Made by a program: the position numbers and the translations under genes. From positions 39,732,252-39,796,251 of the forward strand of contig NC_057719.1 in assembly GCF_004010195.1 (NCBI RefSeq): a stretch of 64,000 bases of DNA, in the 5' to 3' direction. The stretch comes from Chiloscyllium plagiosum (lineage: Eukaryota). Of this stretch, positions 2,111 through 60,745 are shown in pieces; positions within the stretch are counted from its first letter, which is position 1; each line of letters starts with the position of its first letter. Under the pieces are notes generated by a model, which saw nothing but the letters and a program-made list of their open reading frames with translations, was not told the DNA's origin and ran no database searches.

Positions 2111-2692
2111 GTCAGGACAATTTAATTAATGCACATGAACATTATGTTTATGTTATCCTAATCTGTGCATAAATTTGCATTAAAAGTGCTTTTGAATATG
2201 ATAACAATATTTATTGTTCGCAATAAAATGTAATCTTTGAAACATTGGATCCAATTACCATTCTAATGATGATGCTTTTTCACCAAAACAGATAATGAAA
2301 GAATATAAGGTGTAAGATGGTTTTCCTTTATTCCTTTCCCTAGACAGGCAGTATCAGCAGAGTATTAACCTTGTTTGAAAAAAGTCACCTTGCTCTGTGT
2401 ATTTGTTTATGCAAGTTAAGGAGACCTTTGACTGAGATTTGGAAGCAAGTCAAACAACAAAACAACAGACTGGCACATGAAGCAGCTAAAATGAGGGAGC
2501 CAGGCCTAAGTCGATATCAGAGGCACTTTTTTCAAAAATGATAGTGGAAATCTTGTGGGCAAGAAATGCATTCATCTAACACGAAAGCACTTGCAACAAA
2601 AACCTGGAAAAAGGAGAAAGAAACTCACATTTACACAGACCATTGATGAAATAAATCAAACTAATGCACACTATAAAAAATATATCTTCTAG

Positions 2693-2822
2693 GAGAAAGT
2701 GAGGACGGCAGATGCTGGAGATGCTGCAAATCCTGAAGAAGGGCTCATGTCCGAAACGTTGATTCTCCTGCTCCTTGGATGCTGCCTGACCTGCTGCGCT
2801 TTTCCAGCAACACATTTTCAGC
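2693..2822 (+). mobile_element. Penelope-like pseudo-LTR mini-insertion with short inverted 5' segment
   Basis: GAGAAAGTGAGGAC.GCAGATGCTGGAGAT joined to an opposite-orientation pLTR; flanked by an imperfect ~21-bp duplication CTATAAAAAAT(A/G)TAT..TAG (2671-2692 and 2822-2842). Confidence 0.8.
2729..2764 (+). ncRNA. Minimal hammerhead ribozyme motif (Penelope-associated)
   Basis: AATC-CTGAAGA-A-GGGC-TCAT-GTCC-GAAAC-GTT-GATT: CUGANGA and GAAA cores, stem II, stem I AATC/GATT, and palindromic AACGTT in place of stem III. Confidence 0.7.
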
Positions 2823-2849
2823 TATAAAAAATGTATGTTTAGTAAAGAG

Positions 2850-2955
2850 AACCAAAAACAGAAATAGTCGGAAAAACTCAACAGTCTGGCAGCATCTGTG
2901 GAGAGAAAGCAGAGTTAAGTTTGTGGGTCCAGCATCCGCAGTTCTGTTGTTTTGT
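2850..2955 (-). mobile_element. Penelope-like pseudo-LTR fragment (older family)
   Basis: AAAAACAGAAAT...AAACTCAACAGTCTGGCAGCATCTGTGGAGAGAAAGCAGAGTTAA; same family near 5760, 24036, 46910, 48340, 49525, 54020 and 59305. Confidence 0.7.
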
Positions 2956-3574
2956 TGTTTGGTACAGAGATTAGTCACTGTGATTTCCCGTTCCTTTATG
3001 TGTAATATTATTAAAATAAAAGTGATCAAATAGATTAAAACTGTCAAAACCTTGGATTTAGGTTTGCAGGTCTGGAGAACGGTCCCAAAATTGGATGAAG
3101 CTGCAAATAGACAAAGGGACCTCAATGCATAATTAAGCCCAGCTAGTTGAAACCAATGCAGGCAGTATGCTAACTTCCTGCCGCCTGGTCACTGAATTAA
3201 TTGTAGCATGCAGCCAGCACTGAGTGTGCTGTTGAGTGGTTACATGCCTGAACGTGAGAAGCAAAATTATAAGAGGTTAGTTCAAGATAGTCTGTGCTAT
3301 TTAAAACCAACCTACACCTCTTATAGGGTAGTTGCAATTTAACTGGAACAAATGATGAACGTCATTATAAAGGTGGCTTATTTTTTTCTCCGAATGAATT
3401 CAATGCTCTCACCACTGTAGTATGGTTTTGATTCCCAATCAGAAAACAAGGGTTTTTATGATTCATGGTTGTGTCCCTACCTCTGGCCAGAAGGTCCAGC
3501 TTCAAGATCCAGGTGCCTCAGACACATGTCATAACATATCTGAACAGAGGTTGAATAAAAATAATCGCGAAGTC

Positions 3575-3917: not shown

Positions 3918-4900
3918 ATGGCATAGCACGGTAGAAAATGGGGTTCAAAACTTTCTGATGCTACAGTGGAGGTTGTGGAATGCAATGGGCAGAGGAAGAG
4001 GCATGTTAGGTATTCACAAGAGATCACAAGACCATTCAGACAAGTATTGCAAAGGCACTTTAAACAGATGGTGGCATGGTCAATGCCAGGGATTAAGCCT
4101 CAAGTGTCTGGGCATAATAAACCAAGAAGTTTGATAACCTCATACAAGTGGTCAAGACCTGTAAATAAATCTCAAAATGCCATCTTTCATTATTTGCCCT
4201 GGGTGCTCACACACTGCTTGATTCACTACACCTTTATCACTCACATACCAATACCTTTTGCCAAATACAACACATACTAAGATCACAACTTCACCTCACT
4301 TTCACACAAATAGCACGGCTGCAAATGGGTGTCATGGTGGCTCAGTGGTTAGCACTGCTTCCTCATGGTGCCAGGGACCTGGATTCGAATCTCGCCTCAG
4401 GTGACTGTCTGTGTGGAGTTTGCATATTCTCCCCATGTCTGCATGGGTTTCCTTAGCGTGCTCTGGTTTCCTCCGACAATGTGCAGGTCAGCTGAATTGG
4501 CCATGCTAAAATTGTTCATAGTGTTAGGTGCATTAGTCAGGGGTAAATATAGGATAAGGGAAGGGGTCTGGATGGGTTACTCTTCTGAGGGTCAGTGTGG
4601 ACTTGTTGGGCCATATGGCCTGTTTCCCTACTGTAGGGAATCTAATCTAATCTAACCATACATCTCACTGACTATTATTGACTATCACTTCACCTAAACA
4701 CATCGCACCACATTCACTATCACAATTTTCTTTCTCCTGCAGGATAAGATGGTATATAACCTGGGACAGCAATACCTAAACAGCAAGCACAGGGATGGCT
4801 AACTGCCCTTATGTATATGGTGAGGTTATGCTTAGCATTGTTAGCATTGCCATGTCTGAGATTGGACCCAACTGTGAAACATACTCCCAACTTCTACTGC
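3918..4900 (+). pseudogene. Degenerate Myb/SANT-like ORF of a PIF/Harbinger-type transposon (two-exon remnant)
   Basis: Frameshifted translation gives ..SDATVEVV.. and KKFDNLIQVVK (ending 4156), then acceptor TTTCTCCTGCAG (4742) and DKMVYN. This resembles the FSDxxLExLV / KKFNDL / DKxAHN pattern of Harbinger Myb-like proteins. Confidence 0.45.
4327..4655 (+). mobile_element. HE1-type SINE
   Basis: tRNA-like head GGTGGCTCAGTGGTTAGCACTGCT, B-box-like GATTCGAATC, (TCTAA)n tail. Confidence 0.9.
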
Positions 4901-5893: not shown

Positions 5894-6135
5894 GCAGTGA
5901 GGGCTATATGAAGGACCAATAACTGGATCCTGGGCCTCCAGAGGGACCACTGTGCTCTGGTCAAAGTGGGGCAATTGTGTTCAGGTTGGGGATCAAGGGT
6001 GGGGCAGGGGGCTAGGGCCAGAAGTAGCACGAGGGCCCATGACTTTTGTCCTTTGCCCTACATTTGAATGCTGTGATGGTTAGTAACAGAGGAAAAGTAA
6101 GGTTGTTGGGGAGAAGGTTAAGAGGTGACTTAGAG

Positions 6136-6261
6136 GAGAAAGTGAGGTCTGCAGAAGGGCATCGTCGATCACGTCGGGGGGGAAATTGCGGTCCTTGAAG
6201 AAGGAGGCCGTCTGTGTTGTGCGTATTTTGAACTGGTCCTCCTGGGAGCAGATGCGGCGGA
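6136..6261 (-). mobile_element. Penelope-like fragment (pLTR tip fused to ORF piece)
   Basis: GAGAAAGTGAGGTCTGCAG terminus joined to the minus-strand peptide RRICSQEDQFKIRTTQTASFFKDRNFPPDVIDDAL (post-RT helix-turn region of PLEs). Confidence 0.75.
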
Positions 6262-6605
6262 TAGAGACATACAAGATGATCAGATGGTTAGATAGCGTGG
6301 ACAATGAGAACCTTTTTCCTCAGATGGTGATGGCTAGCACGAGGGGATATAGCTTTAAATTGAGGGGTGATAGATATAGGACAGTTGTCAGTGGTAGTTT
6401 ATTTCTCAGTGAGTAGTAAGGGCATGGAATGCCCTGCTTGCAACAATAGGAGACTCGCCTACTTTAATGTCATTTAAAGGGTCGTTGGATAAACATATGG
6501 ATGATAATGGAATAGTGTAGGTTAGATGAGCTTCAGATTGGTTTCACAGGCCAGCACAGCATCGAGGGCTGAAGGGCCTGTACTGCACTGTTATTTTCTA
6601 TATTG
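6262..6605 (+). mobile_element. CR1/HER1-type LINE 3' end
   Basis: IETYKMIRWLDSVD...TRGYSFKL peptide and GGGCTGAAGGGCCTGTACTGCACTG tail. Confidence 0.85.
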
Positions 6606-8983: not shown

Positions 8984-9177
8984 CTGAAAATGTGTTGCTG
9001 GAAAAGCACAGCAGGTCAGGCAGCATCCAAGGAGCAGGAGAATCGACGTTTCGGGCATGAGTCCTTCTTCAGGAGCCCTTCTTCTCCTGCTCCTTAGATG
9101 CTGCCTGACCTGCTGCGCTTTTCCAGCAACACATTTTCAGCTCTGATCTCCAGCATCTGCAGTCCTCACTTTCTCCT
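8984..9177. mobile_element. Hairpin-shaped Penelope pseudo-LTR mini-element
   Basis: Two inverted pLTR arms; hammerhead core on the minus strand (9040-9074); 13-bp TSD TTTTTGAACATGT on both sides. Confidence 0.85.
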
Positions 9178-10539: not shown

Positions 10540-12570
10540 TGGAGGTGAGGTAATGTGTGGTCTGAAGGTATGGACTGGAGCCAAGGCCTGGCACGGACTA
10601 GAGGTGTGGTCCCAATACGATCTGGATGCGAGGTGCGGTATGGTCTGGAGGTGAGGCGCAGTACGTTCTGGAGTTGAGGCGCGGTATGGTCTGGAGGCGA
10701 GGCGTGGTAAGGTCTGGATGCGAGGTGCGGTACGGTCTGGAGGTGAGGCGTGGTAAGGTCTGGATGCGAGGTGCGGTACGGTCTGGAGGTGAGGCACTTT
10801 ACGGTCTGGAGGCAAGGCGCTTTACGGTCTGGAGGCGAGGCATGGTACGGTCTGGTAATGAGGTGTGATACGGTCTGGAATTGAGACGCGGTACGGTGTG
10901 GAGGTGAGGCGTGGTACGGTCTGGAGGTGAGGTGTGATACGGTCTGGAGGTGAGGTGTGATAGGGTCTGGCGGTGAGGTATCATACGGTCTGGAGGTGAG
11001 GAGCGGTACAGTCTGGAGGTGAGGCGTGGTACGGTCTGAAGGTGAGGTGTGATATGGTCTGGAGGTGAGGTGTGATATGGTCTAGAGGTGAAGTGGTATA
11101 TGGTCTGGAGGCAGAGTGCGGTACGGTCTAGAGGCAAGGCGTGGTACAGTCTGGAGGCAAAGTGCGGTACGGTCTGGCGGTGAGGTGCGGTAAGGTCTGT
11201 AGGTGAGGAGCGGTACAGTCTCGAGGTGAGGTGTGATACGGTCAGGAGGTGAGGAGCGGTACGGTCTGGAGGCGAGGTGTGATACGGTCTGGAGGTGAGG
11301 TATCATACGGTCTGGAGGTGAGGAGCGGTACAGTCTGGAGGTGAGGCATGGTACGGTCTGAAGGTGAGGTGTGATATGGTCTGGAGGTGAGGTGTGATAT
11401 GGTCTAGAGGTGAAGTGGTATATGGTCTGGAGGCAGAGTGCGGTACGGTCTTGAGGTGAGGTCCGGTACGGTCTGGAGGCGAGGTGCAGGACGGTCTGGA
11501 GGTGAGGTGTGGTACGGTCTGGAGGCGAGGCATGGTACGGTCTGGAGGTGAGGTGTGATACAGTCTGGAGGCGAGGTGTGATACCGTCTGGAGGCGAGGT
11601 GTGATACGGTCTGGAGGTGAGGTGTGATACCGTCTGGAGGCGAGGTGTGATATGGTCTGGAGGCGAGGTGTGGTACTGTCTGGAGGTGAGGTGCAGTACG
11701 ATCTTGAGGTGAGGTGCGGTACGGTGTGTAGGCAACGAACGGTACGGTCTGGAGGCGAGGCGCAGTACGGTCTGTAGGTGAGGAGAGGTTCGGTCTGGAG
11801 GTGAGGAGTGATACAATCTGGAGGTGAGGTGTGATATGGTTTGGAGGAGGAGTGGTATGGTCTGGAGGTGAGGTGTGATACGGTCTGGAGGTGAGGAGCG
11901 GTACAGTCTGGACGTGAGGTGTGATACAGTCTGTAGGTGAGGAGCGGTACAGTCTGTAGGTGAGGAGCGGTACGGTCTGTAGGCGAGGCGCAGTATGGTC
12001 TGCAGGTGAGGAGTGGTACGGTCTGTAGGCGAGGTGTGCTACAGTCTGTAAGTGAGGAGCAGTAGAGTCTGCAGGTGAGGCGCATTACGTTCTGAAGATG
12101 AGGTGTGATTCGGTCTGGAGGTGAGGAGCGGTACAGTCTGTAGGTGAGGAGCAGTACGGTCTGTAGATGAGGAGTGGAATGATCTGTAGGCGAGGTGCGA
12201 TACAGTCTGTAGGCAAGGTGTGGTATGGTCTGTAGGCGAGGTGCGATACGGTCTGTAGGTGAGGAGTGGAATGATCTGTAGGCGAGGTGCGATACGGTCT
12301 GTAGGCGAGGTGCGATTCGGTCTGTAGGCAAGGTGTAGTACGGTCTGTAGGCCAGGCGCGATACGGTCTGGAGGTGAGGAGGGATACAGTCTGGAGGTGA
12401 GGCGCAGTACGGTCTGGAGGGGAGGCACAGTACGGTCTGGTGGGGAGGCGCCGTACTGTCTTGAGGCGAGGTGTAGTACAGTCTGATGGGAAGACGCGGT
12501 ACTGTCTGGTGGTGAGGTGCAGTATGGTCTGGTGGGGAGACATGGTACCATCTGGTGGGGAGGCCCTGTT
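10540..12570. repeat. 23-bp minisatellite array (~88 units), consensus ~CGGTCTGGAGGTGAGG(T/C/A)GCGGTA
   Basis: Continuous 23-nt periodicity; internal block duplications at offsets 322 (14 units) and 92 (4 units). Confidence 0.97.
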
Positions 12571-12752: not shown

Positions 12753-15700
12753 ACATATTTCTATAGTTCATGGAGTTTATCTCGCCAATGATACAAACTG
12801 CTGCTACTGATGTGTTGCCAATCAGCAAGCTGCCTGTTCCGGACGATATCGAGAATATTAAATATTGTTGGAGCTTCCCTCACATTGGAAAGTGGGAAGC
12901 ATTCCACTGCATTCTTGACATGTGCTTTCTAGATTGTGAACAGATTTGGGATGTCAGGAAATAATTTACACATTGTGGGATTCCAAGCCTTTGAACTGCT
13001 CTTGTAACTACAGCCCTTCTATATGCTACTTCAGTTCAGACTCTGGTCAATGACCTCCTCAGGATATTAATAGTGGGGGTTTCCATGATGGCAATGCCAT
13101 TGAATGTCAAACAGTGTTGGTTAGACTCTCTCTTATTGGAGATGGTCGTTGCTGGTACTTGCCTTTTGTGAGGCCAAGCCTCAATATTGTCCAGGTCTTC
13201 CTGCATTTGGTCATGAACTGCTTCAGTATCAGGCAATGCTGCTGACCATTGTGCAACTATCAGTGAACACCACCAGTCTTGAACCTATGATCAAGTAAAA
13301 GTCATTGTTGAGTGACAGAAGATGGTTGTGCCTAAACCACAACCCTGAGGTAGTGGTCAGTGACTTAAGGTCAGGAAACAGTAAAATTACATTTCATTCA
13401 CAGTTGTTGAGTGAAATGACAAAATTCCTAATTCTAGAATATCATAAAGCTTACAATTGTACTGAAAATGAGTTACTTTAAGTAATAAGTTATGGGATGT
13501 ATCATTTTAATCAGAACTGGAAAAAAGTTAGAGATGTCGTACAGAGGTACAGAGGTCGGGAAAGAACACAGAAAGTTAATTTGATTTTTGCTCTTGAAGA
13601 TGCTAGCTGGTCAGTTGGGTGGTTCCAGTTTTTTTGTTTTGTTTTTATTTTCTGGTATTAATTTTGTGATTATTAAATTGAATGAGTCAGCTACTAAGGA
13701 GGGAGCTTGTGGAATATTAGCCAAGATGTTGAATTTACTTGTGTACATTTTCCAATGGTTGGTAGTTCTCCTTCAGCCTCCTAGATAATTAAGCACCTTA
13801 TGAAATTGGAAATCGGAGTGGTCCACACATACCTTTTAATATTGATTTTTACTGGATTTAACTCCTTCTCTGTAATGATCTTACTAGGACTGATAACCCG
13901 TCCACAGAAAAGTGTGTGTGTGTGTGTCTTCTGATTGAGAAACAAGTGAAACTGTACTGCAACTTCTGCTTATCTGAGATCATGCACTTTATAATTTTCA
14001 ATTTTAAATCGTGTCTGCAAGTATAAATGTCTGACATACATTAGCAAAATGTCATGTGGTTTTCAATCATACCCCAGCTTGATGACTATTCCTCAAATCA
14101 TGTAGTTTGCAGGAAATTGATATTAATAACTGTGCCAAAGCTTATTATGCAGCCAGCATCTTTTAACCCTGTGGTAGTACATCAGCTGTTGAAGGATGAA
14201 TTTTCAGTGCTGATTTCCTGTATTCTTCCTAAGACTCCTGAGGAATCTAGCCAGGAAATTACTACAGATTATTCATTACTAATTTTCTGACTGCCAGGTC
14301 CAGCAACTTCTCTGGCATGTCTTTAGTTTCAAGAGCAGTCATTAGACTGCATGTAGGAGCTTAATGTAATAAATAAGAAATTCCCACCTGCAGTAAGGCA
14401 TTAAATTTAAACTTAAAAAGTAAGCATTAAAGTTAAAACCAATTTAAAGGAGTAGTGCTTTCAGAGATAAGATCTCTCCATGAACCAGGGATGGATGGGT
14501 TAAATGCAGAAAATATTTGTGCTCAATTTGGTGAAAGTATGGAGTGTTTCTGTGAATGGGGAAGCAAGAGTAAGATGTTGTGGATTAAAGGCAGAAAGAT
14601 GGCAATATTGCTGTAAAGAACAGAGTGGACTCCCTTTGAAGAGGTGGAATTTTAGATATCAGTCGCTCATCTGAATGCCTTTTAATTTTACAATTTTCAA
14701 GGTTATATCTACAAACTGAGAAATGAATACTTTTAGAATGAATTTGATGTCACAATGTTTATGAAAAAAAGTTCAAATGTTCCAAAGATGCATGCTCCTG
14801 GATTCACTTAAAAATGCACAAGGTGGCTTGGTGAAGGGTTGGGAATGGAATGGTATCTATACAAAAGAGTGTTTAGAATTCTAAACTTCCCACCTTGACT
14901 CCTGAGTGGTGATAAGCATGTTAGCGTCATCTGTACCTATGAATCTTCCTCCACTGAGCCTTTTACTAAAATTAAACCTTTGTTGTGACATTAATTGCAA
15001 TTCTCACTGGTTGGAATTCTTCAAGTCCTGGTATCCAAGGTAACTAAATTTAAGGTGAATGTGTAATCCTGGAAACAAGCATAGAATAATTAAATATTGT
15101 GACGGTGTATCCTTAGTCCACAAAATAACTACAAAAGGCAACGACCATTTGCCTGAAGCACCCCATTTCATTAATCCTTGATTCCATCTAGGGTTTTTCA
15201 CCTTTGGTGTGCTATGAGTGTCAACCACACTCTGTATGAAGTAAGCATTCTAGATACTTGAGGATATCTTTATCATCCATTCTCTGTGTCAAATTATGTA
15301 TTTGCTGAATTGCTCATTTTGGAAATTGCTCTCTGAAATTGATGAATTGACACAACACAATCAGTTAAACAGATCCTCTGACATCTGCTTCTTATAAGTA
15401 GAACAAGGACTAACCAAGCTTGACATCATTGAATTACAATTTTCTGATTAATCCAGTTTTTTCTTTACTCTTTTTCCTTCTTTTTCCTTCTTGTCTTGCC
15501 CTAGCCTTTCATATTAAAATCTAGCAATTGGTGAAGTTAAGAAAAAGCACTTAGAACTAATAATAGTTAATGTAAAAAATTAACATTTTCTGAGGAACAT
15601 GCCCCTAAACTCGCTGACCTGTCTATACTTTGTAGAAGTGCAGAGCTGTAACCATTAAGTTAGTAATATAACATCATTCGAAATATGGTTCCAGCTATGC

Positions 15701-15839
15701 TTTTCTCTTTGTGGGATATGTGCAATATTCCATGTTACGGTCCTAGTCAGACTCACACCCACAACTGTTTTTCTGATACATTGATGCTTCCTGCTCTTGT
15801 CCAAAATTGGAAAAGTTAATCCAAAATTGACATCCTTCT

Positions 15840-17082
15840 CCCACTTTTACTTGGTACACCTCCTGACTCTTCCCTTCCCTTCATTGACTTCACTGTTTAA
15901 ATTTTCAAGGATAAGCTGTCCACTGATATCCATTACAAGCCCCCTGATGCTCACATTTACCTCAACGGCACCTCTTCACACTCTGCTTTTTGCAAGGATT
16001 TCATTCCATTCTCCCATTTTCTTTGACTCTGTTGCATCTATTCTGATGGTGCCACTTTCTGACATGACCTTTTTGCTCAACCAAGGTTACACCCACCCCC
16101 ACCTCCATTGTGGTGGATAGGATCTTCAGCCATTTCTGATCCATCTCTCACACTTCTCCTCTTCACTCTTCTCCTCCTTCCCAAAACAATGATAGGATTC
16201 CTCTTACTTTGAACCCTACTCATCTCTGCATTCAAAGGATCATTCTTTGCCTTTTCCCTCCAGCAAGATGTCACCAACAAATGCATCTTCCTCTGCCCTT
16301 CACTGTCAGCATTCAGCAGAAAATGTGTCCCCTTTGACATCCTGGTCCACTCCTACATCATTCCTAACTTTCTCACTCCCCCATGGCATCTTCTCATGCA
16401 ATTGCAGAAAGTGTAATATTTGCCCATTCACCTTATCCCTCCTCACATTCCAAGGCCCCAAGTACACTTTCCAAATGAAACAATATTTCACTTATACTTC
16501 TTTCAGACTAGCCTATTGCATTCACTGTTCACAATGTAATCTTCTTTACATTGGTGAGATCAAACTGAGACTGGGTGACCCACCTTATGGAAGACTTCTG
16601 TTCTTCCAAAGGAATGACCTCCCAAATTGCTTACCTTTTCAACTTTTCATTTCATCATACTCTCATGCTAATGTTTCTGACCTGGGCCTGCTGCAATATT
16701 CCAATGAAACACAACACATGCTTGTGGAACAGCTCATTTACTGCTTGGGCACTTTACATGCTAGAGGCCTCAATATTAAGTTCAATACCTTCAGAAACTT
16801 GACCACATTATGTCTACTCTTCATTTTGTTTTTACATTCCCTGTCATTACACCACCATCCCGCAACAGCCTTGATGTATTTATGTCTTTTTGGCTTTACT
16901 CTTAGTAGAGAGGACCCATTCCCTCCCTTTCACATCTCGGCCTCTGTCAAATGTATAAAAAATTTCCCAAAACCTTTCAGTTCTGGAGAAGAGTCACAAT
17001 GAATTCAAAACTCTGTTTCTATCTCCATAGATGCTGTCATACCTGCTGAGTTTCTCCAACACTTTCTATGTTTCTTTCAGAT
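15840..17082 (+). mobile_element. Degraded Penelope-like element: RT C-terminus, GIY-YIG endonuclease, 3' pLTR
   Basis: ORF 16247-17002 contains CNCRKCNICP and AYCIHCSQCNLLYIGEIKLRLGD (GIY-YIG). A pLTR with decayed hammerhead lies at ~16980-17080. Confidence 0.85.
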
Positions 17083-18049
17083 GTGAATTATAGAACCATA
17101 CAATGATACAAAACAGAAGGCCGCCAATAGGCCTGGCATACCAAAAGAATGGTTTTAAATGCGTATCTTTATCTTTGCTGTCAATGGAAGTGTGATTTTC
17201 CACATCAAAACTAACATTAGGACAGAAACAAATAGACTTTTGTTTTTATATTATAATAACTAACCTCTGTTTGCTTTAAAGAATATCACGCTTGCTAGAA
17301 TTCCTCCTTCTGAATAGCATGAAAATTTTGACTCTATATATTTAATAGTCCTTGGAAAAATTGATGTTGTTCTTCAACCACGAAGTACTTCATATAACAA
17401 TCTAGTTAGGAGTTGATAAAGTTTAGCTATTGATTGTGATCAAACCAAGATTTCAAAAATCACTTTCTGCATTATGTCCTCATGTGCTCATAAGCAACAT
17501 TCCTTTTAAAGTATTGTGGTAATTAAACTAAATTTTGCATGGTAACATTTTTATCAGAGTTTCTTATGGATTTCTTCAGCTAATCCTTTTAGAAAGAGCA
17601 ATATAAAGTCACTTAGGAATTGCAAACGTCAACAAATAAAAAAAAAACCAAACCTTAAGTCCCAACAATATTTATTTTATAAAGCATTATGCAAATCTTT
17701 ACTGTTTTTGCATGTAGCCACATTTTCCAGAAGTATTTTTAGCAGTAGCGGAACTGACGAATATTTTGACAGTCAACAAATTTAAAACAGAAATTATCTT
17801 GAGAAAGAAATATAGAAAGAGAAACTTTAAAAAAATGCCAATTCTTTCGGGTGTCATGTTTCACCTGAACTGCAATATCTTTTGAAATATCCAACTAATC
17901 AGTAGAATTTAGGCAAACATTTACATTTAAGGCATAACATAAAATGAAACCACAGCAGAGATGAAAAACAGATGCTGGTGGATTGCCAATCAATGAGATG
18001 GAAATTGGATGGGTGTATAAGTTGTTATTCATCCACTTGCAGATGTTTT

Positions 18050-20492: not shown

Positions 20493-20641
20493 AATGGTGA
20501 GTAGCTGCAAAGGCTTTTGTAAAGGTTAGGGACAGCATCTTCACTTTCAGGTGTCCTATTTCTCACTTTTCTGTCAAACTGCAAAGCTTCCATCTGACCC
20601 TCCAACATTGGGATCCTGTCCACTATTCTTAACTTACCATT

Positions 20642-20955
20642 GGGGCGGCACGGTGGCTAGCACTGCTGCCTCACAGTGCCAGAGACCCGGGTTCAATTCC
20701 CGCCTCAGGCGACTGACTGTGTGGAGTTTGCACGTTCTCCCCGTGACTGCGTGGGTTTCCTCCGGGTGCTCCGGCTTCCTCCCACAGTCCAAAGATGTGC
20801 AGGTCAATTGAATTGGCCATACTAAATTGTCCGTAGTGGTAAGGGGTAAATGCCCGTAAGGGCTAAATGTAGGGATATGGGTGGGTTGCGCTTCGGCGGG
20901 TCGGTGTGGACTGGTTGGGCCGAAGGGCCTGTTTCCACACTGTAATGTAATCTAA
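20642..20955 (+). mobile_element. HE1-type SINE (young, CpG-rich)
   Basis: GGGGCGGCACGGTGGCTAGCACTGCTGCC head, GGTTCAATTCC B-box, GGGCCGAAGGGCCTGTTTCC tail. Confidence 0.92.
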
Positions 20956-21265
20956 AAATTAGTTCAGAGACAACCACAGCACAAGCCTCTGGTTCCCATT
21001 TGAACTGCAAACTGGTGCCTGGAGCCCTCCAGGAAGAATTCTGCCCATTAATTCAAATTCCATCACGGCACTGAGACTTTAAAACATTAAATAGCTGTTT
21101 GGTATTACAGAGCTTGAGTATTGCTGAAATAGGCATGTTTTGTTGAAGCTTTTCATCTTGCGTCTCGCACCAAACAAAATCTGTCTTTTTTCAGCAATAC
21201 TTAAAATTAGTTAATTAAACAAAAAAAATCAGAAATGCTATTTTTGTAACAACTGAATTGTCATA

Positions 21266-21579
21266 CGGTGGCATAGTGGTTAGCACTGCTGCCTCACAGT
21301 ACCAAGGACCCAGGTTCAATTCCCGCCTCAGGCAACTGTCTGTGTGGAGTTTGCACATTCTCCCCGTATCTGCGTGGATTTCCTCCGGGTGCTCCAGTTT
21401 CCTCCCACAGTCCAAAAATGTGCAGGTTAGGTGAATTGGCCATGCTAAAATTGCCTGTAGTATTAGGTGAAGGGGTAAATGTAGGGGAATGGGTCTGGGT
21501 GGGTTGCTGTTTGAGGGTGAGTGTGGACTTGTTGGGCCAAAGGACCTGTTTCCACACTGTAAGTAATCTAATCTAATCT
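21266..21579 (+). mobile_element. HE1-type SINE
   Basis: Same head, body and tail as other copies. Confidence 0.92.
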
Positions 21580-21775
21580 ATAAAACCTATCTGGTTTACA
21601 TTTTTGGGGAAAGAAATTACACATTTTTACTCAGTCTAGCCCACAACTGATTCTGGACCTACTACAATGTGGTTCACTCTTCATCGCCCTCAGAAATAAC
21701 TTAGTTAACCATTCAGTTTTATGAACTACTGCACAAAATTATAATAATAAAAATTGACAAACCACCTGGCATAAT

Positions 21776-22034
21776 GTTTGCATATTCTCCCCATGTCTGC
21801 ATGGGTTTCCTCCGAGTGCTCCGGTTTCCTCCCACAGTTCAAAGATGTGCAGGTCAGGTGAATTGGCCATGCTAAATTGCCCATACTGTTAGGTGCATTA
21901 GTGAGAGAGAAATGGGTCTGGGTGGGTTACTCTTCGGAGGGTTGGTGTGGACTGGTTGGGCCGAAGGGCCTGTTTCCACACTGTAGGGAATCTAATCTAA
22001 TCTAATCTAATCCACTCCAATCTAATCTAATCTA
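21776..22034 (+). mobile_element. HE1-type SINE, 5'-truncated, with extended (TCTAA)n tail
   Basis: Body and tail match; tRNA-like head is absent. Confidence 0.9.
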
Positions 22035-22299
22035 AACAACAGATTGGAATGCAATAAAGGGCACATCCTTCTCAGTTGACCATGCAGTGCTTCCTTGTTA
22101 ATATCTGGGGATTTTTGCCAAATTTGGGAGAGGCATTCTTTAAGCTCTAAAAGAAAACCCTGGCATATTATTTCTATCATAGTCTAGAAGATATAAAAAT
22201 GTGATTATGTCCCAGAAACATCTGGGAGTCATTCAGTATTGACTTCAGACCCCATAAAGTTTCATTGCATCAGGTCACACAACATCATTCACACTAAGC

Positions 22300-23135: not shown

Positions 23136-24169
23136 GGCTTTATAATAGCGAGGTGCTTTTCATTGCCATTATTTTTATTGCCATCAGTGGATTCCCCATC
23201 ATCATTATTCTGGACTTTTCCATTGACTGGAATCTTAACTGAATCAGTCACATTAATACTGCATAACACCTACAGACACAAGTCAGAAGTGTAATGTAAT
23301 ACTCTCCACTTGTCTGGATCAGTGCAGCATCAACAACATTCAAGAAGGGCAACAGCATCCAGAACAACAGTTCTCTCGCTTAGTATCCCATCCACCACCA
23401 CCATAAATATTCATCCCACCATGACTTGTGCGCCTTGCCTGTAGTATATGCCAGGTTTAAGATGCACAATTCACCAGGGCTTCTTTGACAATCAAACTCA
23501 TTTTGCATGAGAACACCACAATATTGATCTCCAAATCTCACGCCATCTTGACTTGAAAATATCCTGCAGTCTTTTTCATCATTGTTGAGTTAAAACCCTG
23601 AAACTCCATGGCTAACACCACTATGGGAGAGTACCTTTTCCATAAGGATTGCACTGGTTCCAGATTTTGGCTCATCACCATTTTCTAAGGGACTGTTGGA
23701 GATAAGCAATTAATACTATATTGTCCATAAATCGGAAGTGAATTTTAACAAGTTATTTTATTTTGTAGGAGGAATTTTACCCTACAGGGATTTTTAACTT
23801 TATGATGTGTTATTTAAAATTTGTTTCCTGCCTGTGGGCAAGGCTGCATTTGTCTATCCTTCGTTAAACTAAAAAGGTGATTGTTAGCATCAATGTTTGC
23901 CATTCCAACTGAATGGTGCACTGGTTGTTTTCGAGGACATTAAGGCAACCATGTAGTGCAGAGCTGGAGTCACATGTAAATCAATCGCATAAATTTGGTA
24001 AGATTTCTCTCTCTCAAGAACATTAGTGAACCAATTAAAAGCAAAATGCTGCAAATGCTGGAAATATGAAAGAAACACAAAAAAAAACCTAGAGAAACTC
24101 AAAAGATCTTGCAGCATCTATGGAGGGAGAGACAGATTTTGGGTCCAGTATGACACTTCTTCAAAACAG

Positions 24170-24353
24170 GAGAAAGTGAGGACTGCAGATGTTGGAGATC
24201 AGAGCTGAATATGTGTTGCTGGAAAAGCGCAGCAGGTCAGGCAGCATCCAAGGAGCAGGAGAATCGACGTTCCGGGCATAAGCCCTTCTTCAGCTCCTGT
24301 TCCTTGGATGCTGCCTGACCTGCTGCGCTTTTCCAGCAACACATTTTTCAGCT
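24170..24353. mobile_element. Hairpin-shaped Penelope pseudo-LTR mini-element nested in an older pLTR (24036-24169)
   Basis: Inverted arms; flanking duplication CTTCTTCAAAACAG (24156-24169) and CTTCTTCAGAACCAG (24354-24368). Confidence 0.85.
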
Positions 24354-25748
24354 CTTCTTCAGAACCAGTCTGGTTTTCATGACAGTTAACAATTTGTTCA
24401 GGTATTTAAGCAAATAGCTCTTCCTTCATGTGGTTTACATCCAGTAATGCATAAAAATAAGTTAGATTCTCAATAACAAATAAGAGAAACCCGAAAAACT
24501 GAATACTGTTTTAGGATTAATAAAGTAATTCCATTTGAAATATGAACTGAGATTATTTGGAGTAGACAAAAGCAGTTAAGGCTGAATGATCTTGTTTTAT
24601 GATTATATTTGTATATTGAAACTGAACAGTGTTTAGGTTTCTGGCATGTTATAATAAAGCCTTTTGAACGTTAGTGGACTTTGTTCACTTGAAATTGAAT
24701 TTAGTATGATGATAACATATAACTAAGTACACCAGTATAAATGTTAACGTGATATGAATCATATACTTCAGTTAAACATTTTTCTTAGCTCAGTCAAACA
24801 TTAAAGGTCCTCATACTTAGTATCTATAGGATATTGTTTTTTTCTTGCACCAAGCAATTATTGAACTTCGTGAAAGCTAAGAATCCTGCAGTATTTTATC
24901 ACTTTAGTGAATAATGCTATGGAAGTCAGTTTCTGCAGAGTCACTCCTTTTCCTTACTGAATTGTTCATGTTGCTATGGAGATACTTGGTGTAATGGCTT
25001 TTACCAATAGGAACTGGAAATAAGCTGGGGAAAGCTGATGTCATGCTAACATTTCAATGACACTGTGCCCTCTGCTACTGAGAGATGGATTCCATTGCAG
25101 TTCTGAGAATTTTAATCATTGTGTTCTTTTTTCAATAGGCAACAGTTAAACTGAATATTAACCCAGAACAGATACAAATCTGTGTTGAAACATCCTTAAT
25201 TATTTTTGAGTAAAAGTAGGTCTATTAACCAATACACAGCCTGCACTCGAGTTAAAGAAATGCAAGGCTATTTAAGTTCTTAATCATCAGTTCATCAAAC
25301 TATCCCCTTGAGATTCCTTAGTCAACAATCACCCACTGACCACTCCACCACCCCATCCCACTTATTTTTGAGGAGAGAAGCTAAGACAGGAAAACGCAAG
25401 TTATAAAATTCTCCTTAGCCTTGAATAAAATCCATAACTCAGCCTCTGCTCCAAAATGAGTGCTGTTGTCTATATCTGTCCATGTCATACCCTCCAGAAC
25501 CAGGCCTTGGAAGCTTGAATGACCTCCTGATATTTTAAACCTCCATCTATATTTCAATTACAAGCACCTCAATAGTCTTTCTTTCTAAAAATATCACTTG
25601 CTTATGAAAATTAATAACAGCTCTCACAAGATAGATTAGATCTTCCCATGTTTACAAGTAATTGCTCATATTCAATAGATAAGTTTGTAAAGAAACAAAT
25701 CTTCAATATCTTTTTTTAGTGTTTGTAGTAAAAATATATTAAGACCAA

Positions 25749-26050
25749 GGATCAGTGGTTCGCACTGCTACCTCACAGCACCAGGGTCCCAGGTTTGATT
25801 CCAGCCTTGGGCGACTGTGTGGAGTTTGCACATTCTCCCTGTATCTGCGTGGGTTTCCTCTGGGTGCTCCGGTTTCCTCCCACAGTCCAAAGATGTGCAG
25901 GTCAGGTGAATTGGCCATGCCAAATTGCCCATAGTGTTCAGTGCATTCGTCAGAGGGAAATGGGTCTGGGTGGGTTACTCTTCGGAGGGTCAGTGCGGAC
26001 TTGTTGGGCCGAAAAGCCTGTTTCCACACTGTAGGGAATCTAATCTAATC
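25749..26050 (+). mobile_element. HE1-type SINE
   Basis: Head remnant, body and (TCTAA)n tail. Confidence 0.9.
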
Positions 26051-26052
26051 AA

Positions 26053-29000
26053 AGACTTAGGAGTGGAAGTAAGGCCATTTGGCCCATCAAGTCCACTCCG
26101 TCATTTAATCATTGCTGATGGGCATTTCAACTCCATTTACCCATACTCTACCCTTAGCCCTTAACTCCTTGCGAGATTAAGAATTTATCAATCTCTGCCT
26201 TGAAAGTATTTAATGTCCCAGCCTCTGCTGTGCTCCATTGCAATGAATTCCACTGACCCACCACTCTCGGGCTGAAGAAATGTCTCCTCATTACCATTCT
26301 AAATTGATCCTTTCTAATTCTAAGGCTGTGCCCACGGATTCTAGTCTCCTCACCTAACTTCCCAGCGTCCACCCTTTCTAAGCCATGCATTATCTAGTAA
26401 GTTTCTATTAGATTTCCCCTCAACCTTCTAAACTCTAATGAATACAATCCCAGGATCCTCAGCCATTCATCGTATGTTAGGCCTACAATTCCAGGGATTA
26501 TTTGCGTGAATCTCCGCTGGACACGCTCCAGTGCCGGTACGTCCTTCCTGAGGTGTGGGGCCCAGATTTGGACACAATATTCCAAATGGGGCCTAACTAG
26601 AGCTTTATAAAGTCTCAGAAGCACATCAATGCTTTTATATTCCAACCCTCTTGAGATAAATGACAACATTACATTTGCTTTCTTAATCATGGACTCAACA
26701 TGCAAGTCAACCTTTAGAGAATCCTGGACCAGCGCTCCCAGATCCCTTTGTACTTTGGCTTTATGAATTATTTTCACCATTTAGAAAATAGTCCATGCCT
26801 GTATTCTTTTTTTCCAAAGTGTAAGTGCTCACATTGAATTTCATCACCATTTCCTGGACCACTCTCCTAAACTGTCTAAATCTTCCTGCAGCCTCCCCAC
26901 CTCCTCAGTACTACCTGCCTGTCCACCTAATTTCGTATCATCGGCAAACTTCACCAGAATGTCCCCAGTCCCTTCATCCAGATCATTAATATATAAAGTG
27001 AACAGCTGCAACCCCAACACTTAACCCTTCGGGACACCACTTGTTACTGGCTGCCATTCCAAAAAAGAACCTTTTATCCCAACTCTCTGCCTTCTGTCAG
27101 ACAGCCAATCCTAAATCCATGCCAGTAGCTCACCTCGAATACCATGGGCCCTCACCTTACTCAGCAGCATCCCATGAGGTACTTTATCAAGACCTTTTGG
27201 AAGTCTAGGTAGATAACATCAAATGGGCTTCCCTGATCTAACCTACTTGTTACCCCTTCAAAGAATTCTGACAGGCTTGTCAGGCACAACCTCCCCTTAC
27301 TAAATCCATGCTGACTTGTTCTAATCCGACCCTGCACTTCCAAGAATTTAGAAATCTCATCCTGAAAGATGGATTCTAGAATTTTACCTACAACCAAGGT
27401 TAGGATAATCTGCTTATAATTTTCCATCTTTTGTCTTGATTCTTTCCTGAACAAGGGGATTACAACAGCGATTTTCTAATCACCTGGGACTTTCCCTGAC
27501 TCCAGTGACTTTTGAAAGACCAATGCCTCTGCTATTTTCTCAGCCACCTCCCTCAGACCCCTAGGATGTTGCCCATTGGGGCTAGGAGATTTATCAATTT
27601 TTAGACCTTTTAGCTTTTTTAGCACTTTCTCTTTTTTTATTGGCTACCATACTCAACTCTGCCTCCTGACTCTCCCTATTGTTGGGGATATTACTCATTC
27701 TTCCACTGTGAAGACTGACACAAAGTACTTATTAACTTCTTCAGCTATTTCCTTATTTCCCATCACTAGCCTTCCTACATCAATTTGGAGCGGCCCAATG
27801 TCTACTTTTGCCTCTCGCTTGTTTTTATGCATTGAAAGAAACTTTTAATATAATTTCTAATATTACTGGCTATCCTATCTTCATATCCATTCCTCTCCTT
27901 CCTTATTTCTCTCTTTGTTATCCTCTGTTTGTTTTTGTAGCCTTCCCAACCTTCTGATTTCCCAGTGCTCTTGGCCACTTTATAGGCTCTCTCTTTTTCT
28001 TTCTGACTTCCTTTGTCAGTCATGGCTGTCTAACTCCCCCACCACCCCACTCAGATAATCTTTCTTTTCTTTGGGATGAACCTTGTTCTGTGTCCTCTAC
28101 TACACCCAGAAACTCCTGCCGTTGTTGCTCTACTGCCTTACCCACCAGACTCTGCTTCCAGTCGATTTTCATCATTTCCTCTCTCATGCCCCTGTAATTG
28201 CCTTTATTTAACTGTAACACCGTTACATCTGATTTTGCCATCTCTCTTTCAAACTGCAGACTGAACTCTACCATATTATGATCGCTGCCTCCTTAGTGAT
28301 CCCTTATTTTAAGACCTTTTATGAAGTCTGGCTCATTACATAGCACTAAGTCCAGAATAGCCTGCTCCCTTGTGGGCTCCATCACAAGCTGTTCCAAAAA
28401 GCCATCCAGTAAGTATTCCATGAATTCTCTTTCTTTGGATCCTCCAGCAACATTTTTCACCCAGTCCATTTGCATATTGAAGTCCCCCATGATCGCTGTG
28501 ACCTTGCCTTTCTGACATGCCTTATCTATTTCCCGGTACAACTTGCGCCCCTGGTCCTGACCACTGCTGGGGGTTCTGTACATAACTCCCATTATGGTTT
28601 TTTGCCTTTGTGGTTGCTTGACTCCATCCACACAGACTCCACATCATCTGAACCTATGTCATTCTGTGCCATAGATTTAAATTCATTCTTAGCTAACAGG
28701 GCAACTCCACCCCCTCTGCCCCCCTCCCTGTCTTTTTGATAAGTTGTAAATCCTTGAATGTTTAACTGCCAGTCCTGAACCACGTCTCTGTGATGCCTAC
28801 CACATCATAATCATTCATGATGATTTGTGCCGTTAATTCATCTACTTTGTTACAATTACCCAGAGCGTTCAGGTAAAGTGCCTTAATGCTAACTTTCTTA
28901 TCATTATTAGAGATATTGGAAATCGTAAGATGTCCTAAGTTATCTTTCGTTTTTGCTGCATTCCTAGTCTGCCTTGAGCTTAAGCCCACCTGCACACATG

Positions 29001-29155
29001 CTAGCCAGCTGCTTATCTTTCCATTTAACACCATACTCCCTGTCACTTTATCTTGCCCTTACCTCCCCGACTCAGAAGTTTAAAGTCCTACTGACCTCCC
29101 TATATATCCTTTTCTCTAGAACACTGCTTCCAGATCGGTTCAGGTTGGACTGTAT
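26053..29155 (-). mobile_element. CR1-type LINE, ~3.1 kb: ORF1 end, APE endonuclease, RT, 3' UTR (disabled)
   Basis: Peptides ALYLNA..NKVDEL..DVVGITETW, IMGDFN, ILDLVL, SQHGFSKGRLCLT, DVIYLDFQK, RPHLEYCVQIWAP; ORF1 tail LNRSGSSVL. Multiple stops and frameshifts. Confidence 0.95.
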
Positions 29156-36321: not shown

Positions 36322-37004
36322 CTGTAGGAAAATATGCAGCCAGTTAGGTAATGGATCATAATGGATCAATTACTCTGAGTTTTAATTATTTAAGGCAATT
36401 TAGTATCACTAAGATAGGCAGTGTGTATAATTCAAAAAGTACTGTATTCCTTTTCATTGCCATCATTGTAGCATTTGGTTTAAGAATGACTGGTAGGTTT
36501 TGCAGCTGTGTAAATGGTTTAAACATTTGCCCAGTGACTGATCTGGAAACAATAAAAAACTTGAATATTTAAGAAATTCAATACTTTAATATTTATATTC
36601 ATATTCCCTATTATTTGTCATAATACATCTTGTGACTATTCACAATGTATAAAAATATATGGTACAAAAATAATTTTAAATAATTACTAATTAAATTCAT
36701 TAAAAGTACATCAGAAGATTGAAGTGATGAGCCTCGTGTGTTGGGTGAAAAGAGTAAGCATGGGAATTTCAATGCAAGAGTGGAGACACAGTATGAGGTA
36801 TGGCTTTCCTACCTCAGACATCCTGTCTGAGAATGAACAGAGACTATTTGAGTCTTGCTTCTAGAATGAGTTTAGTGTAAATAACTCTTTTTTCTCAGAA
36901 CAAACCATGCCAGAAGGCATACTCAATATATCCAACATCAGGGTATTGGCATTAGTTGGATTTGATCATTACCAGATGTGACTGCATGAATAGTATGCTC
37001 AATG

Positions 37005-37195
37005 CTTGGAAATGCTGGTGTTGGACTGGGGTTTACAAAGTTAAAAATCACACAATACCAGGTTATAGTCCAACAGTTTTATTTGGAAGCACTAGCTTTC
37101 ATCAGCCTGTCCTGATGAAGGGCTTAAGCCCAAAACATCGATTCTTCTGCTCCTCGGATGCTGCCTGACTGGCTGTGCTTTTCCAGCACCACACC
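37005..37195. mobile_element. Two Penelope-like pLTR pieces of different families, back to back
   Basis: GTTAAAAATCACACAA.ACCAGGTTATAGTCCAAC family (reverse copy at 44775-44895) joined to CCTGATGAAGGGCTTAAGCCCAAAAC, a hammerhead-like piece. Confidence 0.7.
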
Positions 37196-41730: not shown

Positions 41731-41965
41731 GTTATTCTTTTATTCTTCTGGCCAGATGTTTATTTAGTGGTAGGTGAGCACTTTGGAGAGTGACCGTAAT
41801 TCAGTTACATTTAGTTTAGTGATGGAAAGAGATAGGTACGTGCCACAGAGCAAGAGTTATTGATGGGAGAAAGGCAATTATAATGTGATTAGACAAGACT
41901 TAGGTTACATATAATGTGGTAGCAAAATGGAGGGGATAGGGACAATCGAAATGTGGAGCTGGTTT

Positions 41966-42264
41966 AGATTAGATTACATTAGTTTCCCTACAGTGTGGAA
42001 ACAGGCTCTTTGGCCCAACAAGTCCACACCGACCCTCTGAAGAGTAACTCACCCAGACCCATTTCCCTCTGACCAATGCACCTAACACTATGGGCAATTT
42101 AGCATAGCCAATTCACCTAATCTGCACATCTTTGAACTGTGGGAGGAAGCCCACACAGACACGGGGAGAACGTGCAAATTCCACACAGACAGTCACCCTA
42201 GGCTGGAATTGAACCCGGGTCCCTGGAGTTGTGAGGCAGCAGTGCTAAACACTGAGCCGCCCCC
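41966..42264 (-). mobile_element. HE1-type SINE
   Basis: AGATTAGATT tail; head GGGGCGGCTCAGTGTTTAGCACTGCTGCC on the minus strand. Confidence 0.9.
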
Positions 42265-42277: not shown

Positions 42278-42351
42278 AGGCCCCAGCGAGGATTGAACTC
42301 GCGACCCCTGGTTTACAAAAACCAGTGCTCTAACCACTGAGCTATGGAGCC
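42278..42351 (-). tRNA. tRNA-Thr(TGT) gene or pseudogene with 8-nt anticodon loop
   Basis: Minus strand GGCTCCATAGCTCAGTGGTTAGAGCACTGGTTTTTGTAAACCAGGGGTCGCGAGTTCAATCCTCGCTGGGGCCT folds as a cloverleaf and closely matches vertebrate tRNA-Thr-TGT. Loop is TTTTGTAA rather than CTTGTAA. Confidence 0.88.
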
Positions 42352-42780: not shown

Positions 42781-44774
42781 CAAGGAACAAATATTGCGTG
42801 TCAGGCAGGGAAGAAGTGATAAGGTAAGGTAACCGTGGTTTACTATAAAAAATACATCTCTTGTTAAGCAGAAGAAGGAGGTTTATGTGACAATGAGTCG
42901 AGATAGTTCAGATGAGGCGATGGAGAGTTACAGATCAGCTAGGAAGGATTTGAAGAGAGACTTAAGAAGAGCAAAGAGAAGACATGAGCAGTCTTTAGCA
43001 AATAGAATAAAGAATAATCCTAAAGCTTTCTATAGGTATGTGAGTTATAAAAGGACGACTAGGGTAGGAATAGGGCCAGTCAAAGACAGAAGTGAGAAGT
43101 CGTGTGTGGACCCTGTCGAGATCGGAGAGGTGCTAAACAAATATTTCTCATTAGTTTTCACTCAGGAAAGGAGAATATTATAGAGGAGAAAAATGAGATA
43201 CGATATATTAGACTAGAAAGGATCAATTAAAGAAAAGGTGTTATCAATTCTAAAAGGAGTGAAAGTAGGCAAGTCCTCTGGGCCAGATAGGATTTATCTG
43301 AGGATTTTCTGGTAAGCTAGGGAAGAAGTGTTGGAGCCTTTGGCTTTGATCTTTGAGTCATCATTGTCTACAGGTTTAGTACTGGAGGACAGGAGGATTA
43401 CAAATGTTGTGCCCTTGTTCAGGAAGGGCAGTAGAGATGACCGAGGTAACTATAGACCAGTGATTCTTATGTCTGTTGTAGGAAAAGTTTTGGAAAGGAT
43501 TATAAGAGATAGGATTTATAATCATCTAGCAAGCAACAATTTGATGTCACATAGTCAACATGGTTTCGTCAAGGGCAGGTTGTGTCTCACAAACCTCACT
43601 GAGTTTTTGAGAAGGTGACCAAGCATGTGGATGAGGGAAGGGCAGTTAACGTGGTGTACATGGACTTCAGTAAAGCATTTGATAAGGTTCTACATGGTAG
43701 GCTGTTGGAGAAAATGCAGAGGTGTGGGATTGAGGGTGATTTAGCAGTTTGGATTAGAAACTGGCTTTCTGTAAGAAGGCAGCAAGTGGTGGTTGATGGA
43801 AAATATTCAGCCTGGAGTCCGGTTACTAGTAGTGTACCACAAGGATCTGTTTTGGGACCACTGCTGTTTGTCATTTTTATAAATGACTTAGACGCAGAAG
43901 TAGGTGGATGGGTTAGTAAGTTTGCAGATGATACTAAAGTCGGTGGAGTAGTGGACAGTGTGGAAGAATGTTGCAGGTTGCAGGGGGACTTGGAAAAACT
44001 GCAGAATTGGGCTGAGAGGTGGCAAATGGAGTTCAATGCAATAAATGTGAGGTGATGCACTTTGGGAAGAATAACAGGAAGGCAGAATACTGGGTCAATG
44101 GAAAACTTCTTGGCAGTGTGGATGTGCTGAGGGATCTTGAGGTATACAGATCCTTGAAAGTTGCCACCCAAGTTGATAGTACTGTTAAGAAGGCATACGA
44201 TGTGTTAGGTTTTATTGTTTTTGAGTTCCGGAGCCGTAATGTTATGCTGCAAATATACAAAACATTAGTGCGGCCACACTTAGAATATTGTGTACAGTTC
44301 TGGTTGCCCCATTACAGGAAGGATGTGGAAGCATCGGAAAAAGTGTAGAGGAGATTTACCAGGATGTTGCCTGGTCTGGAGGGAAGGTCTTATGAGGAAA
44401 GGCTGAGAGACTTGGGTCTGTTCTCACTGGAAAGAAGAAGGCCATGAGGGGATTTGATAGAGACAAAAAGATGATCAGAGGATTAGATAGGGTAGACAGT
44501 GGATGTCTTTTTCCTAGGATGATGACGTCAGCTTGTACGTGGGGGTATAGCTACAAATTGAGGGGTGATAGATTTAAGACAGTTGTCAGGGCGTGGAATG
44601 CCCTGCCTGCTAATGTAGTTAACTCAGCCACAGTAGGGACACTTAGACAATCCTTAGATAAGCACATGGATGATGATGGGATAGTGTAGGGGGATGGGCT
44701 TAGATTAGTTCACAGGTCGGCGCAACATCGAGGACCGAAGGGCCTGTTCTACACTGTATTGTTCTCTGTTCTAT

Positions 44775-44895
44775 AAAGGAGCAGCACTCCGAAATCTAGG
44801 GCTTCCAAATAAACCTGTTGGACTATAACCTGGTGTTGTGTGATTTTTAAATTTGTCCAACCCAGTTCAACACAGGCACCTCCAAGTCATGGCTA
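44775..44895 (+). mobile_element. Penelope-like pLTR piece with truncated hammerhead (stem II + GAAA)
   Basis: AAGGAGCAGCACTCCGAAA...AAATAAACCTGTTGGACTATAACCTGGTGTTGTGTGATTTTTAA. Confidence 0.6.
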
Positions 44896-60379: not shown

Positions 60380-60745
60380 AGAATCCCTGTTATGCAGATA
60401 GAGGCCATTTAGTCCTTCAAGTCTGCACCTGTAACCCTACATTTATCATGACTAACCCACCTAGCCTGCACATCCCCATTCACTGCGGGGCAATTTAGCA
60501 TGAGCTGAAAATGTGTTGCTGGAAAAGCGCAGCAGGTCAGGCAGCATCCAAGGAACAGGAGAATCGACGTTTCGGGCATAAGCCCTTCAGCATGGCCAAT
60601 CCACCTAACCTGCATATCTTTGGACTGTGGAAGGAAACTGGAGCATCCAGAGGAAACCCTTGCGGACACAGGGAGAACATGCAATCTCCACGCAGACAGT
60701 TGCCTAGGACTGGAATCAAACCTGGTGTCTTGAGATAGCAGTTCT
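60380..60745 (-). mobile_element. HE1-type SINE interrupted by a Penelope pLTR piece (60503-60588)
   Basis: SINE sequence GGGCAATTTAGCATG|GCCAATCC is split by the pLTR, with AGCATG duplicated. Confidence 0.88.

Follow-up and report, generated by a model that had tools for sequence, protein, structure and literature searches.

Does the hammerhead-like motif at positions 2729–2764 of this elasmobranch window (the whole stretch of 64,000 nucleotides that was analysed) belong to a family of mobile elements, and does this copy still cut its own RNA? We conclude that it very probably comes from a high-copy Penelope-like family whose minimal type I hammerhead motif has been left behind here in a dead solo pseudo-LTR insertion. 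Minimal hammerheads (min-HHR) in the pseudo-LTRs of metazoan Penelope elements were defined in PMC4209133 (Cervera and De la Pena 2014), which describes them in the Xena, Poseidon and Neptune elements of fish, in coelacanth and in Xenopus, mostly as solo truncated copies, some of them close together in opposite orientation. Passages of that paper on activity report none for monomers and low activity for dimers, and propose the processing of a tandem precursor; the dimer evidence for min-HHR is reviewed in PMC6765202. The kind of motif has been known since 2014, and the site studied here is an ordinary decayed example of it. No hammerhead from a shark was found in the literature searched, which included parts of PMC4209133 and of its supplements; repeat databases may list some. 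An earlier sequence-only reading had taken the site for a minimal hammerhead in a shark Penelope pseudo-LTR, and this identification stands, the motif being of type I and the architecture that set out in sections of PMC4209133. Its wider claim, that the pseudo-LTRs of shark Penelope-like elements encode such ribozymes, extends a known rule to these hosts and is not a new rule; its choice of this copy as the one that best shows the ribozyme is not supported by the comparisons below.

A minimal hammerhead motif at 2729–2764

Read on the forward strand, the site opens with the 5′ arm of stem I, AATC (AAUC; 2729–2732), in place of the (C)AUUC of the family that is recovered from loose ends before 2731 and 2753. 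There follow the hammerhead core C3–A9, CTGAAGA (CUGAAGA; 2733–2739), an extra A between positions 9 and 10.1 that precedes stem II (2740), a 4-bp stem II, GGGC/GTCC, with a 4-nt loop TCAT (2741–2752; pairs G-C, G-C, G-U and C-G), G12–A14 (GAA; 2753–2755), the palindrome ACGT (ACGU; positions 15.1, 15.2, 16.2 and 16.1; 2756–2759), H17 (2760), which is U here (letter T) and C in the family and places the predicted scissile bond at 2760/2761, and the 3′ arm of stem I, GATT (GAUU; 2761–2764). The letters that the earlier reading had listed, namely the CTGAAGA and GAAAC boxes, a 4-bp stem II, a 4-bp AATC/GATT stem I and AACGTT, are all present at 2729–2764. The traits that mark membership of the min-HHR class are found as well: the C3-U-G-A-N-G-A9 and G12-A-A-A15.1 boxes, the extra A2740, the G10.1–C11.1 pair (G2741–C2752, in 6/6 copies), the absence of helix III, the palindromic ACGU at 15.1–16.1 and the U16.1-H17 site. 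Helix I has 4 bp, yet two of its pairs rest on junction bases.

A descriptor of the minimal type I hammerhead (both core boxes, a stem II of at least 4 bp and A-N-N′-U-H, with G-U permitted), composed after the site had been seen, matched only 2729–2764 on both strands of the window, whereas 150 sequences of 64 kb drawn from a first-order Markov model gave 0 matches. The looser pattern CTGANGA-N6-20-GAAAC matched three times, against 0.75 expected, a count attained by 4/100 shuffles. Rfam returned no hammerhead match at the gathering score in the window, nor at E ≤10 in 2500–3100, and this silence is expected because the motif is without helix III.

The insertion that carries the motif

The motif is part of a short repeat that we name family A. 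The window has 11 pieces of it, six of which reach the hammerhead; nearly all are solo pieces of ≤150 nt. Its host is an insertion of ~130 nt, in which an inverted tail and a pseudo-LTR body lie between 15-nt target duplications. The left target-site duplication (2671–2685, forward strand; 14/15 identical to the right copy) is followed by an inverted, 5′-truncated piece in which nothing of the pseudo-LTR is left but its 3′ tail of ~30 nt (2691–2722, reverse strand; placed by blastn to intact copies), a junction segment that resembles the inverted tail (2720–2732, forward; 11/13 to the family A tail and 12/13 to a family B tail), a tail-less family A pseudo-LTR body (2731–2823, forward; 94–96% identity to the four closest other window copies) and the right duplication (2822–2836, forward). 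Depth over all contigs at junction position 2725 is 653, against millions on either side. Because 2720–2732 resembles the inverted tail, the AA of the AATC arm is junction sequence, and the probability that two junction bases fit stem I by chance is between 0.08 (AA) and 0.26 (any purines).

The same head-to-head layout recurs at 8984–9177 and 24168–24353, with 13- and 12-nt duplications, respectively; among six insertions tested for target duplications, four have a clear one (12–15 nt), one has a weak 9-nt match and one has none. Penelope insertions as described in PMC3846280 and 10.1101/2021.04.23.441226 have an inverted truncated partner, a tail of 30–40 nt on one end and a target duplication, to which the inverted tail, tail-less body and target duplication seen here correspond. 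No host exon was identified near 2729–2764.

Family consensus and changes private to this copy

Family A is very abundant. Public sequencing runs aligned to 2591–2950 yielded 88,091 contigs from X1, 84,306 from X10 (a run under a second organism label relative to X1) and 8,194 from X16, nearly all of them falling on the repeat portions; this depth shows great abundance and is not a copy number. The rise in depth 3′ of the hammerhead is confounded by the private mismatches of the 2729–2764 copy and was left unused for end mapping. A 30-nt family A pattern had no match in metagenome, prokaryote and viral contigs.

Against this background, the label ‘best-preserved’ that the sequence-only reading gave the copy is true only in the narrow sense that it alone in the window passes the full descriptor, the other five copies that reach the hammerhead each failing through one or more changes or truncation. 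As a recommendation of the best example of the ribozyme the label misleads: positions 2750 and 2760 deviate from 4/4 compared copies, and half of stem I comes from the junction. The third pair of stem II is G-U in this copy, G-C in 4/5 other copies and A-C in the fifth. Position 2760 is C in 71%, 69% and 82% of aligned depth (X1, X10 and X16), and therefore the family triplet is GUC and the U of this copy is a CpG C-to-T change; hammerhead sites with GUU cut more slowly than those with GUC. The remaining changes in this copy are C-to-T decay. Across the aligned depth the CG of the palindrome is altered at C15.2 in 13% and at G16.2 in 17%, as expected under neutral decay.

These data also dispose of two readings of the letters. 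Family A does not conserve AACGUU as a helix III of 6 bp, since most copies have C as the sixth base and an A14–U17 pair would occupy core bases; the six-base AACGTT exists only through the CpG change at 2760, so the pairing unit is ACGU. AATC, likewise, is not the family arm of stem I. Loose ends before 2731 finish in CCTCAT in X1, X10 and X16 (n = 393, 469 and 63; overall agreement only 0.35–0.38), and the X10 loose end before 2753 (n = 379) reads CATTC ahead of the core, as does the copy at 30041; the family arm by these loose ends and the 30041 copy is CAUUC, which makes the family stem I C-G, U-A, a U-U mismatch and A-U.

A second repeat family with the same hammerhead boxes

Adjoining the insertion on the reverse strand is a pseudo-LTR remnant of a second family, family B (2843–2937), which has lost its hammerhead boxes. 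Loose ends that follow 2918 (1833 from X1 and 262 from X16) give the family B hammerhead; it has the boxes and the ACGU palindrome of family A, together with U17 and a 5-bp stem II, GGGUC/GACCC, whose last pair is G-U in the X1 consensus. Its first stem I pair is U-A, against C-G in family A, and window copies lengthen the family B 5′ arm to (A/G)GUU opposite AACU.

A third short repeat family occurs at 36995–37112 (reverse strand) and 44765–44895 (forward strand), its two copies agreeing at 86% and showing the palindrome AGCU and a stem GGAG/CUCC. It probably represents a further end repeat of a Penelope element, one whose palindrome is compensated, although both copies are broken and the resemblance is only suggestive. 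Within 24040–24365, the family A insertion at 24168–24353 has entered a family B hammerhead at its 5′ edge and duplicates 12 nt of its core region, and at 37005–37195 a family A variant adjoins the third family in head-to-head orientation. It seems that the end repeats of Penelope copies serve as landing sites for other copies.

Folding, pairing and covariation

The minimum-energy fold of the isolated 36-mer consists of stems I and II (−5.7 kcal/mol) and is no better than that of shuffled sequences (z = −0.12); the probability of stem I is 0.01–0.21 in three longer flanking contexts. When two 36-mers were cofolded, the ACGU/ACGU intermolecular helix had a probability of 0.94–0.96, with A14–U17 also paired (0.84) and stem I below 0.1, the active arrangement being at −9.7 kcal/mol versus a minimum of −16.1; given 61 nt of context, the shared ACGU helix fell below 0.01. 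These ViennaRNA values leave out the tertiary contacts of the hammerhead core. Covariation, which the sequence-only reading had proposed as a check of stem II across genomic copies, did not appear within family A: two-sided change was seen in 0/10 pairs over six copies, and the score was not above that of shuffles. Compensated stems are seen only between families A and B, in a comparison made by eye from read loose ends, and it is this comparison that would support the hammerhead fold.

For an active parent element, we propose that a tandem transcript would carry two hammerheads whose ACGU palindromes pair into a shared 4-bp helix III, and that cleavage would follow GUC, probably aided by the protein of the element. 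Reverse transcription would begin at the tail and continue to the 5′ end of its template, in most cases an RNA not yet cleaved, and the expected outcome would be short solo copies that start at the 5′ edge of the hammerhead, many of them accompanied by an inverted partner. Because the stem I of the family is weak, even the parent may cut poorly, and we infer that its ribozyme would be weak and dependent on a dimer or on protein, the 2729–2764 copy being a dead product of it.

An alternative interpretation is that the fold never reaches a useful cutting rate and serves as a landmark for protein binding or reverse transcription, or is a catalytically crippled relic. We consider this possible, though the less likely account of the family: its weak stem I fits such a role, and 6/11 copy ends retain the whole uncut hammerhead; the parts of PMC11167929 on ribozyme mutants describe no effect on insertion in vitro and no RNA-seq ends at the cut site; passages of PMC4209133 give low activity even for dimers; and cleavage was absent in 8/9 Xenopus dimers in the portion of 10.64898/2026.07.22.740005 that treats them. 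Against this interpretation, the boxes and the palindrome are common to families A and B despite their differing stems, and the ribozyme of an Anolis element cuts with its protein, with rescue at C3/G8 (PMC11167929).

Ties to Penelope open reading frames

Remnants of Penelope open reading frames (ORFs) lie beside or are joined to the end repeats at several places in the window. On the forward strand, a broken remnant with reverse transcriptase (RT) and GIY-YIG endonuclease regions (15678–16798) is followed by a family B pseudo-LTR (16977–17090), the whole spanning 15678–17090. The reverse strand has a similar remnant (51174–49956) followed by a B-like pseudo-LTR (49652–49525; together 49525–51174), an endonuclease-region remnant (48987–48482) followed by a family B pseudo-LTR (48482–48352; together 48352–48987) and a broken RT/endonuclease remnant at 60095–59874 that was mapped with relatives as queries. 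Two fusions, both on the reverse strand, involve family A. At 6132–6271 a fragment of the RT thumb (6271–6155; tblastn E = 1e-8) is fused straight to a family A tail, and at 57199–57671 a single insertion with a 12-nt duplication unites a family A pseudo-LTR piece (57197–57254) with the N-terminal portion of a Penelope ORF, whose ATG is at 57629. The frame at 57199–57671 is 74% identical to the shark protein P0151 (E = 1e-31), and the N-terminus of P0151 in turn matches full-length ORFs with RT and GIY-YIG domains (E = 5e-9 and 6e-7). The ATG at 57629 lies ~37 nt beyond the apparent end of the tail (57666), where the tail match is merely 5–6 nt. Within this N-terminal piece, a 27-nt tandem repeat at 57271–57339 encodes an Ala/Thr-rich low-complexity stretch.

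An exhaustive protein search with the frame at 16304–16750 retrieved 443 proteins at E ≤0.001. A domain scan of ten of them found GIY-YIG in eight and RVT_1 in five, most below the Pfam cut-off; those above it were P0101 (RVT_1) and P0063 (GIY-YIG). Scanned directly with Pfam, four broken Penelope frames of the window gave neither an RT nor a GIY-YIG match. Those protein relatives of the window’s retroelement remnants that have a named source belong to rays, a skate and sharks, which marks the DNA as elasmobranch-like. Some public protein entries of sharks and rays that carry the names mucin-2-like, DDX19A-like or receptor-transporting protein 3-like (among P0151, P0152, P0001 and P0004) include pieces of Penelope ORFs, which are probably retroelement sequence annotated as exons. 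The remnant at 16334–16798 and its relatives have a Cys motif between RT and endonuclease; the Zn-finger motif of the Neptune clade at this place is shared with Nematis (10.1101/2021.04.23.441226, in part), and the Cys-rich linker suggests Neptune or Nematis affinity, not Poseidon, for the remnants in the window.

Because the window holds no full-length family A element (ORF, 3′ untranslated region and both repeats), the link between family A and Penelope rests on the two fused fragments and on family B. Family A could instead not be an end repeat of any autonomous element but a short non-autonomous one, akin to a SINE or a retrozyme, which only borrows the Penelope machinery. That nearly all window copies are solo and ≤150 nt would fit, and such derivatives, as well as hammerhead tandem repeats in one chondrichthyan, are described in part of 10.64898/2026.07.22.740005. 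We nevertheless consider it quite unlikely: Tandem Repeats Finder detected no head-to-tail array of the unit here, Penelope ORF sequence is joined to two of the copies, in one case within a single target duplication, and the pattern of tail and inversion is that of truncated Penelope copies.

Other features of the window include a minisatellite at 10616–12539 with a 23-nt period, ~84 copies, 78% matches and a strong G skew, and a tRNA gene or pseudogene at 42278–42351 (reverse strand; Rfam 62.3 bits), whose anticodon loop is irregular and which ARAGORN left unassigned. Broken frames bearing an integrase at 62140–63677 (reverse strand; Pfam rve, E = 1e-7, and Integrase_H2C2) mark an LTR retroelement or endogenous retrovirus. 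LINE remnants, which we take to be CR1-like, occur at 26394–29058, 42833–44689 and 52789–53370, with RT/endonuclease matches at 43603–44052 and 28296–28643. A tRNA-headed SINE with (TAGAT)n ends, presumably the HE1 SINE, has many copies (1090–1360, 4320–4655, 20634–22035, 25732–26053, 41960–42263 and 60586–60732).

Activity of the 2729–2764 copy

The 2729–2764 copy is most likely inactive in vivo: a partner in cis is absent, the sequence has drifted (G-U and U17) and half of its stem I derives from the junction. The nearest family A copy on the same strand is 27,308 nt away, and no dimer partner lies within 27 kb. Its core is full and its stem I is better than that of the family, and slow cleavage in vitro at high RNA and Mg2+ concentrations may therefore be possible.

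The opposite proposal, that the junction repaired stem I and that this is a working or host-used ribozyme, with a host transcript cut together with a partner RNA in trans, strikes us as most improbable. It can point to this copy as the sole one in the window that passes the full descriptor, to stems I and II as the minimum-energy fold in isolation and to family contigs in a run guessed to be RNA, a run that may hold DNA. Yet junction bases that fit have a chance probability of 0.08–0.26, stem I reaches only 0.01–0.21 in the three flanking contexts, the nearest possible partner on the same strand is the one at 27,308 nt, the other changes are C-to-T decay and the surroundings offer no identified host exon. 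A chance match to a short motif, for which the two-box pattern in 4/100 shuffles, the fold z of −0.12 and the Rfam result might speak, is refuted by the descriptor control (0 in 150 replicates) and by the read loose ends of families A and B, two repeat families whose motifs share one location, that expected for Penelope elements, and we regard it as next to impossible.

Where the copies begin

Of 11 family A 5′ ends, six lie within ~5 nt of C3, three lie 2–7 nt 3′ of the predicted cut and two are in the tail. Of the five ends off the edge, three fall within 8 nt beyond the cut, a result with P = 0.005 for a position fixed beforehand and P = 0.14 for any 8-nt window; the test was post hoc, and the ends were set by blastn and are blurred by microhomology. 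These ends may record the state of the germline template RNA, the edge class being uncut and the post-cut class cleaved before reverse transcription, a conjecture that we hold to be unlikely. A pause of the polymerase at stem I would predict the same picture. Uncut RNA is the main substrate in vitro in the account given in part of PMC11167929. If the conjecture were true over many thousands of shark copies, the genome would hold a footprint left by minimal hammerheads of Penelope elements that had cleaved in vivo.

Relation to known systems and meaning

The site shares with the min-HHR of PMC4209133, as characterized in parts of that paper, the type I core, the extra base between 9 and 10.1, the G10.1–C11.1 pair, the palindromic 15.2–16.2, the lack of helix III and, with two of its pairs formed by junction bases, a short helix I; it differs from them in its elasmobranch host, its 4-bp stem II, the U-U mismatch in the helix I of the family and the decayed state of the copy. 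Frangieh et al. 2024 (PMC11167929) describe, in the portions relevant here, protein-assisted cleavage, insertion in vitro that needs no cleavage and reverse transcription that starts at the tail. Their Anolis carolinensis Poseidon element PAc resembles the present family in having a hammerhead in the pseudo-LTR, a tail of 30–40 nt that marks the starts of reverse transcription, AT-rich targets and an ORF start near the repeat; the ORF of PAc starts at stem II, whereas here the ATG lies past the apparent tail end by the ~37 nt given above. The type I hammerheads of animal non-LTR retrozymes (parts of 10.64898/2026.07.22.740005 and PMC7229834) are likewise akin to the end repeats of Penelope elements, and one chondrichthyan genome is reported to have them, but retrozymes form head-to-tail arrays, whereas here a solo copy has an inverted tail and a target duplication. 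A retrozyme array at the site was rejected, Tandem Repeats Finder having found no head-to-tail units with consecutive hammerheads in the window.

The single site matters little, being a decayed solo copy of a motif familiar from Penelope elements. It does carry a caution for ribozyme mining, in that the copy with the best descriptor fit can mislead about its family: because the fit at 2729–2764 owes something to junction bases and to a CpG-type change, testing this copy would misrepresent family A. The size of family A, by contrast with the single copy, may make it possible to learn, from where its copies begin relative to the cut site, if such hammerheads cleave in vivo and at what stage they do so.
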